Virus record (IMG/VR): IMGVR_UViG_2698536450_000011
Length of the DNA stretch: 4,494 nucleotides
Source of the DNA: a virus
Taxonomy: Duplodnaviria > Heunggongvirae > Uroviricota > Caudoviricetes
Strand: one strand, 5' to 3'
The notes beneath the pieces are model-generated. The model made no database searches, was not told the DNA's origin, and saw only the letters and a program-made list of their open reading frames with translations. How positions within the stretch are numbered: the first letter of the stretch is position 1; the number at the start of each line of letters is the position of its first letter. The position numbers and the translations under genes were made by a program. This document shows, piece after piece, positions 1 through 838 of this stretch.

Positions 1-13
1 GAGTTGATGGCTC

Positions 14-271
14 ATGATGTCCCTCTGGGATGCGCTCCGGATGAATATGATGATCTCATATCAGGAACTTGTTCGCACCTTCCCTAATGCTGGTTGCTCT
101 TTTTCTGTCCCTCGCCTGGGTGATGTTGTCTTCGTCGGGGCTGCTGGGGTGACAGTGACTGATGACATCAGCAGAGCGCTGGCTTTTGCTATTAAGTGGG
201 TGGCTGTTGGTATTGCTGTGTCTCCGATGCTGTATGGGCTGGCAAAACTGGTCATTGCGCTGAAATCGTGA
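14..271 (+). CDS. hypothetical small protein (85 aa) with hydrophobic C-terminal segment; possible lysis-cassette-associated membrane protein
   Basis: Complete ORF in track. ATG at 14 overlaps a TGA at 15-17 in another frame (ATGA), consistent with coupling to an upstream gene ending at the window edge. C-terminal ~30 aa (ISRALAFAIKWVAVGIAVSPMLYGLAKLVIAL) is hydrophobic and long enough for one transmembrane helix. This segment is paralogous to the downstream 28-aa ORF, with differences concentrated at third codon positions, which argues that it is really coding. No family recognised. Start uncertain (ATGs at 14, 17, 41, 47, 50). Confidence 0.35.
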   Translation: MMSLWDALRMNMMISYQELVRTFPNAGCSFSVPRLGDVVFVGAAGVTVTDDISRALAFAIKWVAVGIAVSPMLYGLAKLVIALKS

Positions 272-282
272 ACTTTAAAAAG

Positions 283-369
283 ATGAGTGCTGAACTTATT
301 CGGGCAATGGCATTTGCCATTCGTATTGTGGCCATTGCTGTTCTGGTCTGGGCAATCCGTTGGTGGTGA
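283..369 (+). CDS. hypothetical 28-aa hydrophobic peptide ([28 protein letters not shown]), stop 1 nt before Rz start
   Basis: Hand-translated; not in the ORF track because it is under the length cutoff. ATG 283-285, TGA 367-369, Rz ATG at 371. Almost entirely one hydrophobic helix. Resembles the C-terminal segment of ORF 14-271 (RA-AFAI--VA motif conserved; codons differ mainly at wobble positions). Weak Shine-Dalgarno (aaaaag). Confidence 0.3.
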
Positions 370-370
370 A

Positions 371-838
371 ATGAACCGCGTTCTGTGTGTGGTCATCATT
401 GCTCTGCTGGTGGCCTGTGGTGCGCTTAGTCTGGGGCTGAATCATTACCGCGATAACGCCATCACTTACAAAGCGCAGCGCGATAAAAAAGCCAGTGAAC
501 TGAAGCTGGCGAACGCAACCATTACTGATATGCAGGTGCGCCAGCGCGATGTTGCTGCGCTCGATGCAAAATACTCGAGGGAATTAGCCGATGCGAGAGC
601 TGAAAATGAAACTCTGCGTGCTGATGTTGCCGCTGGTCGTAAGCGCCTGCGGATCAACGCCACCTGCTCCGGTACCGTGCGTGAAGCCACCGGCACCTCC
701 GGCGTGGATAATGCAACCGGCCCCCGACTGGCAGACACCGCTGAACGGGATTATTTCATCCTCAGAGAACGGTTGATGACAATGCAGAAGCAGCTGGAAG
801 GGGCGCAGGAATATATCCGTACTCAGTGCCTGAAATAA
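371..838 (+). CDS. Rz: Rz-type i-spanin (inner-membrane spanin subunit), lambda Rz-like
   Basis: Translation from ATG 371 ([68 protein letters not shown]...[37 protein letters not shown]) closely parallels phage lambda Rz as I recall it: N-terminal TM anchor, coiled-coil periplasmic domain, conserved [15 protein letters not shown] and [11 protein letters not shown] blocks. TAA at 836-838. The track ORF starts at an upstream GTG (287), but homology favours ATG 371. Confidence 0.9.
591..776 (+). CDS. Rz1: Rz1-type o-spanin (outer-membrane lipoprotein spanin subunit), embedded in +1 frame within Rz
   Basis: ORF fully inside Rz in a different frame, the classic embedded Rz/Rz1 architecture. Translation [61 protein letters not shown] has a lipoprotein signal with lipobox VVSAC and a proline-rich mature region, resembling lambda Rz1. 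Shine-Dalgarno GAGGGA at 577-582, 8 nt upstream of ATG 591. Confidence 0.85.

Follow-up and report, generated by a model that had tools for sequence, protein, structure and literature searches.

Two Tandem Small Peptide Genes Upstream of the Spanin Genes of an Escherichia coli Lambdoid Prophage Belong to a Catalogued but Unstudied Family

The DNA analyzed here is a stretch of 4,494 nucleotides (nt) from the IMG/VR virus record IMGVR_UViG_2698536450_000011 (hereafter, the window; 4.5 kb), and it corresponds to the late region of an Escherichia coli lambdoid prophage. Directly upstream of the spanin gene Rz, it contains two short open reading frames (ORFs), designated B′ and C, each of which encodes a hydrophobic peptide. 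We found that both ORFs are members of a family that is already catalogued but unstudied, and do not constitute a new family. We put the probability at about one half that B′ and C, as diverged tandem copies of this family, each with a single predicted membrane pass, serve as dispensable, late inner-membrane accessories of lysis made together with Rz.

Relationship of B′ and C to Each Other and to Catalogued Families

An earlier note on this DNA had described a 28-amino-acid (aa) ORF (C) at 283–369 and an 85-aa ORF at 14–271, the last part of which is B′, and had pointed to a helix of the pattern R-A-x-A-F-A-I-(K/R)-x-V-A in both. A reading-frame scan found the 28-aa ORF as described, and the shared helix proved to be real and above chance: the best ungapped BLOSUM62 score between B′ and C was 47, which was equaled by one of 3,000 composition-preserving shuffles (p about 3e-4). 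The full-length relatives of the B type and the C type align without gaps at 45% identity over 44 aa (E = 1e-13). There are also bridging or hybrid forms, i.e., P0048, in which a C-like N-terminus precedes a B body, P0098, in which a B N-terminus precedes a C body, and P0138, in which the helix is B-like and the end is RWW. In the core shared by B′ and C, the nonsynonymous (dN) and synonymous (dS) divergences calculated with the NG86 method were 0.47 and 1.9, respectively, so the duplication is old. Judged from these alignments, B′ and C are true, old, and diverged paralogs. Nine residues are identical between them, six of which are encoded by different codons. The nucleotide differences over the 28 aligned codons number 11, 10, and 17 at the first, second, and third positions; third positions thus carry 17 of them, but the description of the differences as falling largely at third positions was overstated.

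The full-length B-type forms are 48–60 aa long (MEKYKRILLRLT-MKNGLELKAPVTDDISRALAFAIKWVAVGIAVSPMLYGLAKLVIALKS) and end in ...KWVAVGIAVSPMLYGLAKLVIALKS, and the longer C-type forms are 37–50 aa long; the B type corresponds to phrog_1115 and the C type to phrog_4493. In searches with hidden Markov models (HMMs), B′ matched the phrog_1115, phrog_4493, and phrog_3246 families (6.4e-25, 2.4e-20, and 5e-17, respectively), C matched phrog_4493 (3.8e-6) and phrog_3246 (9.2e-5), and the full-length B and C forms matched PHROG families at 1.4e-42 and 1.4e-24. Both types match all three of these families, to which the catalogue assigns no function, and both ORFs are called hypothetical proteins by RefSeq and the Prokaryotic Genome Annotation Pipeline (PGAP) (WP_032140280.1, which is C, and WP_042004856.1). 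The statement that no known family is recognizable must therefore be withdrawn, because these entries and annotations already cover both ORFs. The window copies differ from the three PHROG families in that just two-thirds of each profile, on the C-terminal side, are matched. Both copies lack the canonical N-terminus, (x)YKRILLRLT-MKNGLExxAP, B′ starting with VTVTDD and C with MSAELIR, and by comparison with the profiles they are N-terminally shortened versions of the family.

Coding Constraint

We also analyzed the proposal that both copies are under coding constraint. Among the unique B-type variants, 21 synonymous and 9 nonsynonymous changes were found in frame, where 29% were expected to be synonymous (p = 4e-6), and the ratios in the other two frames were near 1 or above. 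The first tally for C, from a partly biased sample, was 24/33 (synonymous/nonsynonymous; p = 0.004), with 12/7 in the core. The first B sample consisted of the best hits by protein similarity, and the first C sample was collected with a DNA pattern that fixed the residues AFAIRxVAIA; because both were thus partly ascertainment-biased, we ran the test again with hits in E. coli genomes that had been selected for their nucleotide similarity. The signal for B held in these comparators (6/1, 7/1, 8/3, and 3/2). For C, the unbiased pairs gave about 8/7 (a hand count) and 5/5, which suggests a dN/dS of 0.3–0.4 but is not significant alone. The replacements in C are conservative (I/L/V, A/T, and E/D), the short forms sampled nearly all have 28 codons, and at the 101 loci anchored on the B–C junction, C was open in 100 and had exactly 28 codons in 99. 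Furthermore, distant members of the family keep the MKNGLExxAP motif and the helix while their DNA has diverged. These substitution patterns argue for purifying selection that is clear on B, for which the support is strong, and weaker on C, for which it is moderate; the proposal of constraint on both copies thus stands firmly for the former and to a lesser degree for the latter.

Predicted Membrane Character

The Kyte–Doolittle hydropathy in a 19-residue window was 1.9–2.9 in all the peptides, scores of 1.9–2.2 being counted in favor of a transmembrane character for B′ and C. An AlphaFold2 model of B′, based on the family alignment, consists of a single continuous helix (residues 2–39) with a mean predicted local distance difference test (pLDDT) score of 94, and B′ and C are each predicted to form one transmembrane helix. 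The long forms carry a net charge of +3 to +4 on the N-terminal side of the helix, so that, by the positive-inside rule, they would be expected to lie N-in and to expose hardly any residues to the periplasm. The features of spanins are absent from B′ and C, neither of which has a periplasmic domain or a lipobox, and Rz and Rz1 are separate genes.

Gene Organization and the IS5 Junction

The features of the left part of the window are summarized in Table 1. With megablast searches of phage records and 5,426 complete E. coli genomes, we found relatives that are 99.8% identical to the window. In one uninterrupted relative, L001 (NZ_CP027599), the gene order is a class II S21-type pinholin (PF04971), YdfR (DUF1327), a signal-anchor-release (SAR) lysozyme, and a strong terminator-like hairpin, followed by ORF-0 (31 aa, phrog_6632), ORF-A, B′, C, and Rz/Rz1. 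The reading frame of the holin is not shared by B′ or C.

Table 1. Features at the left end of the window and around the spanin genes.
Feature	Position	Strand	Basis or remark
End of IS5-like (ISKpn26-family) insertion sequence	1–83		83 nt; IS5B alignment and start of prophage homology
CTAA, one copy of the 4-bp target duplication of IS5	84–87		Single copy in uninterrupted relatives
ORF-A 3′ remnant, last 22 codons and stop	84–152	+	phrog_4906; cut by IS5
ORF B′, B-type peptide, 38–40 aa	149–271	+	GTG 149 or 155; phrog_1115/3246/4493
A-rich spacer ACTTTAAAAAG, 11 nt, B′ stop to C start	272–282	+	Sequence
ORF C, 28-aa C-type peptide	283–369	+	phrog_4493 type; short N-terminus, one predicted hydrophobic helix, RWW end
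GGTGGTGA, Shine–Dalgarno-like sequence for Rz	362–369	+	Last codons of C, TGG TGG TGA
Rz, i-spanin	371–838	+	PF03245, E = 2.5e-50; phrog_13
Rz1, o-spanin lipoprotein, in the +1 frame of Rz	591–776	+	PF06085, E = 1.7e-21; phrog_3198

When intact, ORF-A is a putative gene for a 43-aa hydrophobic peptide (L001, 3942–4073), and its stop codon, TGA at 150–152, overlaps the GTG at 149 (GTGA). The length of B′ is 38–40 aa because it starts at either GTG 149 or GTG 155; the latter is the start annotated in one phage record, and in L083, the GTG that overlaps the ORF-A stop is the first start codon in the B′ frame. The spacer between B′ and C contains no strong Shine–Dalgarno sequence, and the B′–C junction is kept in 101 IMG/VR instances. 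C runs from ATG 283 to TGA 367–369, and A370 is the sole base between this stop and the Rz ATG at 371; the coordinates thus bear out the observations that the 28-aa ORF stops 1 nt upstream of Rz and that both ORFs are packed stop-to-start with it. The complementarity of GGTGGTGA to the anti-Shine–Dalgarno sequence is well established, and it is a near-consensus Shine–Dalgarno sequence. In the region 355–373, a mosaic boundary with Rz genes not preceded by C falls at about position 355, and the sequence ATCCGTTGGTGGTGA-N-ATG acts as a portable ribosome-binding junction, which was also found before methylase and lipoprotein genes (L108, L100, and L015).

ORF-A has a dN/dS of about 1, though its length and a good Shine–Dalgarno sequence with ATG are kept across phages, and it is also overlapped by a second open frame (the B′/Rz frame). 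When the ORF-A frame was inspected by eye, no canonical slippery heptamer for a −1 frameshift that would fuse ORF-A with B′ was seen. The 31-aa hydrophobic mini-ORF ORF-0 lies upstream of ORF-A in several prophages (L001, 3838–3939; L008, 1298–1435), and its end, ...LIVAIKG, resembles the B end ...LVIALKS.

The left end of the window belongs to an insertion sequence. Prophage homology starts only at about 80–84, all the megablast matches starting at position 80. The last 82 nt of IS5B from K-12 align with 2–83 of the window at 69/83 identity, and the alignment finishes at the terminal base of IS5B; the ends of ISKpn26-family (IS5-like) elements are 92–96% identical to the window from 1 to approximately 106. 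The inverted repeat of an IS5-like element, CTTGTTCGCACCTTCC, lies at 68–83. By inference from the alignment with IS5B, the ATG of the transposase gene would be at 15–13 on the minus strand, reading out of the window. CTAA is a typical IS5 target, the target preference of this element being well established, and it occurs once in L001 (4005–4008). The insertion falls in the small gene ORF-A, between the lysozyme gene and Rz, and the IS5/ORF-A junction was found in none of the complete E. coli genomes of our collection.

These results bear on two claims of the earlier note. The frame of the 85-aa ORF at 14–271 is indeed open, but this ORF is a chimaera produced by the insertion and not a conserved gene: codons 1–23 are insertion-sequence DNA and codons 24–45 are an alternative frame of ORF-A, so only the last 38–40 codons, i.e., B′, belong to a conserved gene. 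The frame-1 ORF at 4–87 had been considered as a possible endolysin C-terminus, which is ruled out because the sequence aligns with IS5. As a lesson for annotation, the end of an IS5 fused to a short real gene can yield a convincing long ORF.

Distribution and Genomic Context

The family is tiny: when 1.84 billion cluster representatives were searched exhaustively with HMMs, only 19 proteins were found, all 20–87 aa long. In GTDB, scanned with one genome for each species, 14 matches to the pattern were obtained, and tblastn upheld none of them. The named sources were mostly E. coli and Salmonella, with single labels for Citrobacter freundii and Yersinia enterocolitica. Among the 5,426 complete E. 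coli genomes, part of the window region 140–400 was present in 1,709, i.e., about a third of the complete genomes carry the family beside lysis genes, and the B′–C–Rz junction was present in 609 (about 11%). The arrangement had been described as atypical; it is indeed unlike that of lambda, but at this frequency it is common.

The architecture of the loci is highly mosaic. Most B-type loci (69 of 80) have the order lysozyme–B–A–Rz, and the other architectures are lysozyme–B–C–Rz, lysozyme–B–A–B′–C–Rz, and GH108 endolysin–B–A–lipoprotein. Shiga toxin (Stx) phages often have ant–A–Rz or ORF0–A–Rz, and in phiSTEC1589, B is frameshifted and C is truncated. The neighboring endolysin gene is of three kinds in three phage types, encoding a SAR lysozyme, a GH108 endolysin, or a PG_binding_1 endolysin (in a contractile-tailed, P2-like phage). 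Distant members follow either the PG_binding_1 endolysin gene of this P2-like phage, where two small lipoprotein ORFs come next, or a tail-fiber gene. Given these varied contexts, the most constant neighbor is the endolysin rather than the spanin; in most cases, the family comes immediately after the endolysin gene, and it is not always beside a spanin gene.

Where Rz is absent, a small lipoprotein gene of phrog_7528 (lipobox LVGC/LVSC) repeatedly follows the B-, C-, or A-type peptide genes (L100, 1349–1567; L009, 1794–1991; L015, 1916–2191). In the contractile-tailed, P2-like L239, two different small lipoprotein ORFs occupy this place. The small proteins of the K-12 prophages Qin and DLP12 (YnfR/S/Q and others) were considered as relatives and rejected as unrelated.

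Proposed Role and Alternative Explanations

The lysis cassettes of phages of Gram-negative bacteria, consisting of holin, endolysin, and spanin, are considered to be well understood. We infer that a role as a lysis accessory is the most likely one for B′ and C. Within temperate phages, mostly of E. coli and Salmonella, the family travels in late operons as a mosaic cassette of accessory genes. In the intact chain, ORF-A is followed by B′ through the GTGA overlap, by C after the 11-nt spacer, and by Rz after 1 nt, with the Shine–Dalgarno sequence of Rz inside the last codons of C; in the window, an IS5-like element has cut ORF-A and thereby created the spurious 85-aa ORF. Late expression of the peptides would come from the Q-dependent pR′ transcript, by termination and reinitiation and along with that of the spanins, and the peptides would insert N-in into the inner membrane. 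There, they may act as non-essential modulators of envelope disruption, for example by affecting the timing or efficiency of pinholin triggering, SAR-endolysin release, or the action of the spanins. If the peptides do tune the timing of lysis or the release of endolysin, they would represent a dispensable regulatory layer on lysis by pinholins and SAR endolysins, including that of relatives of the Stx phages.

Several observations weigh against this interpretation. Lambda, phage 21, and the cryptic prophages of K-12 (Qin and DLP12) lack the family, and its members are frameshifted or truncated in some phages (L005); consequently, any role in lysis must be dispensable. In other phages, what follows the C-type 3′ end at the same 1-nt spacing is a gene for a Dam-like methylase or a phrog_7528 lipoprotein, and in one arrangement the family is flanked by the gene for an Ig-domain head protein and that for a minor tail protein, so the specific link to spanins that had been suggested does not hold. 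No similarity of the peptides to holins, to the releasin of Mu, to type I toxins, or to defence proteins could be detected, and literature searches on the family members returned nothing. The signal of selection on C is modest and its sample partly ascertainment-biased; the conserved RWW end of C may reflect the downstream Shine–Dalgarno sequence rather than the peptide; and B′ and C, without the canonical N-terminus, could be partly decayed copies.

Some of these observations would also fit ORFs that act mainly in cis or not at all, as leftovers of mosaic recombination, a truncated B and a short C, that persist by bringing ribosomes and a Shine–Dalgarno sequence to the next gene. We consider this unlikely, though the last codons of C are the Shine–Dalgarno sequence of the following gene, the same 3′ end is joined to Rz, methylase, and lipoprotein genes, the homology of Rz genes without C begins at window position 355, and the neighboring ORF-A shows near-neutral evolution; the lost N-termini and the frameshifted and deleted versions point the same way. 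The strong synonymous excess of B, which occurs solely in its own frame and also in the comparators chosen by nucleotide similarity, the conservative replacements and nearly constant 28-codon length of C, and the retention of MKNGLExxAP and the helix in distant members despite DNA divergence speak against it. If the peptides were inert, the locus would neatly illustrate how ORFs at mosaic junctions are retained for the sake of translational coupling. It is very improbable that 283–369, rather than being a gene of its own, extends Rz at the N-terminus or forms a structured 5′ leader RNA. The Rz frame is open upstream to GTG 287 and one phage record annotates an extended “lysis protein,” but this frame shows no synonymous excess over C and has four stop events among the variants, from which it follows that C is not an extension of Rz; moreover, the PHROG and Pfam profiles of Rz begin at ATG 371. 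A leader RNA is opposed by the folding of the region 260–400 (z-score, +0.3), which has no Rfam match.

The canonical, full-length units of the family suggest another possibility. Regardless of the upstream gene, the first element of such a unit is always a bidirectional terminator-like hairpin, composed of an A-run, a GC hairpin with lineage-specific changes in the stem, and a T-run; a 30–45-nt leader and the ORF come next. A sigma-70-like site on the minus strand, within the KYKRILLRLTM codons, recurs in two divergent members, and the predicted antisense RNA of about 75 nt (z = −3.3) would cover the Shine–Dalgarno sequence and start codon and end at the hairpin. An Rfam match to the sar RNA lies at the same place in L242 (475–558, minus strand), at a level far below the family threshold (E = 0.6). 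There are thus hints of hok/sok- or sar-like control in the canonical units, but they rest on consensus matches that lie inside conserved coding sequence, and the module is missing from the window copies. Such units were found at 1399–1501 in L011 and 3930–4001 in L239, with equivalents in L238, L242, L009, and L182. In L239, a sub-threshold Rfam match to IS009 was also observed at 2786–2976, about 1 kb upstream of the distant family member; a 2026 preprint describes IS009 matches near the prophage small RNA PasB, which is located in a structural-gene operon.

On the basis of such units, the family could be a self-contained, moron-like module, in which a membrane peptide that is toxic (type I-like and held in check by the antisense RNA) or excludes superinfecting phages acts in the lysogen and not in lysis, the window copies having been captured and truncated at the 5′ end. 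This explanation also appears doubtful to us, to about the same degree as action in cis. The constant hairpin, the minus-strand site, and the possible antisense RNA with its weak sar match favor it, as do the type I toxin-like size and hydrophobicity of the peptides and the location of some members outside lysis cassettes. However, the hexamers of the promoter fall within conserved coding sequence and their −10 element is weakened by a common variant, the sar match is far below its threshold, there is no match to the Pfam type I toxin families or to PADLOC, neither strand of the window yielded a promoter-like site around B′ and C, and most copies are inside Q-dependent late operons, beside endolysin genes. 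A broader and somewhat less probable conjecture is that the whole B/C family is a hitherto unrecognized mobile module, each unit of which joins a bidirectional terminator to a short antisense RNA and to a peptide of 40–60 aa with membrane activity (type I toxin-like, or a new class of single-helix lysis regulator); this would have been captured repeatedly beside endolysin genes, and the window would contain two 5′-truncated copies coupled translationally into the spanin operon.

Downstream Part of the Window

According to the annotation of the near-identical L001, the genes downstream of Rz encode a TonB-like protein, a YlcI/YnfO-family protein, an HNH endonuclease, and the small and large terminase subunits. 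The TonB-family ORF at 1177–1503, between Rz and the packaging genes, has its own sigma-70-like site (1117–1144) and looks like a classic moron. Between the HNH endonuclease gene and the small terminase gene, the sequence ATGTTAAC occurs in five copies on both strands within 120 bp (2337–2458), where 0.09 would be expected by chance, and these copies are probably binding sites for the terminase or of the cos region.

Comparison With Known Systems

The window ORFs had no Pfam match at E ≤ 1, nor did the long forms at E ≤ 0.1, with the holin, DUF2730, and type I toxin families included; searches of NCBIfam and of PDB sequences gave no match to the peptides, and PADLOC gave no family at E ≤ 1. 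A survey of the lysis cassettes of Stx phages makes no mention of these ORFs.

An antiholin binds and delays its cognate holin, and is usually a product of an alternative start of the holin gene or a dedicated partner. The earlier note had suggested an antiholin- or pinholin-like role for the two peptides. Like the S21-type pinholin/antiholin (PF04971), B′ and C are small inner-membrane proteins, as predicted, encoded in the same lysis operon, and in a BLASTP comparison, KWVAVGIAVSPMLYGL locally resembles QWVAIGV-LGSLLFGL of the second transmembrane domain (TMD2) of the pinholin. In contrast, they have one predicted helix rather than two and no C-terminal basic tail, and the homology to TMD2 was rejected because profile comparison with hhalign did not uphold the local match (probability, 2%); the suggested role thus remains a conjecture. 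In a separate case, P0062 (L209, an ENA scaffold of 554 bp), the N-terminal half of an S21-type pinholin is fused to the C-terminal half of B at the W-V/A-A-V/I-G motif that both share. Either genuine recombination or a chimaeric assembly could account for this sole holin–B fusion, seen in one metagenome scaffold.

The gp25 “releasin” of Mu (DUF2730), a 99-aa N-out/C-in protein with a 73-aa anionic cytoplasmic domain, affects the release of endolysin (PMC9239132). It is similar to B′ and C in that it is a small accessory membrane protein, neither holin nor spanin, whose gene lies a few genes downstream of that for a SAR endolysin (PMC9239132). However, B′ and C have 28–40 aa and almost no soluble domain, are predicted to be N-in (from the long forms), and do not match DUF2730, so the likeness is best read as an analogy in position only.

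The peptides also resemble type I toxins, such as that of hok/sok, in being hydrophobic and 30–60 aa long and in the possible antisense RNA of the canonical units, but they have no homology to the Pfam families of Hok, Ldr, Ibs, TisB, and Fst, and the antisense RNA is only predicted. The control of the sar type in P22 is similar in that the possible antisense RNA of the canonical units would cover the Shine–Dalgarno sequence and the start of the upstream in-frame extension; the window copies differ from both the type I and the sar-type systems in that this 5′ module is entirely absent from them. B′ and C, next to which no promoter is evident, can finally be likened to gp15 of HK97, a small, single-pass inner-membrane protein that is encoded by a moron and is accessory in a lambdoid late operon.

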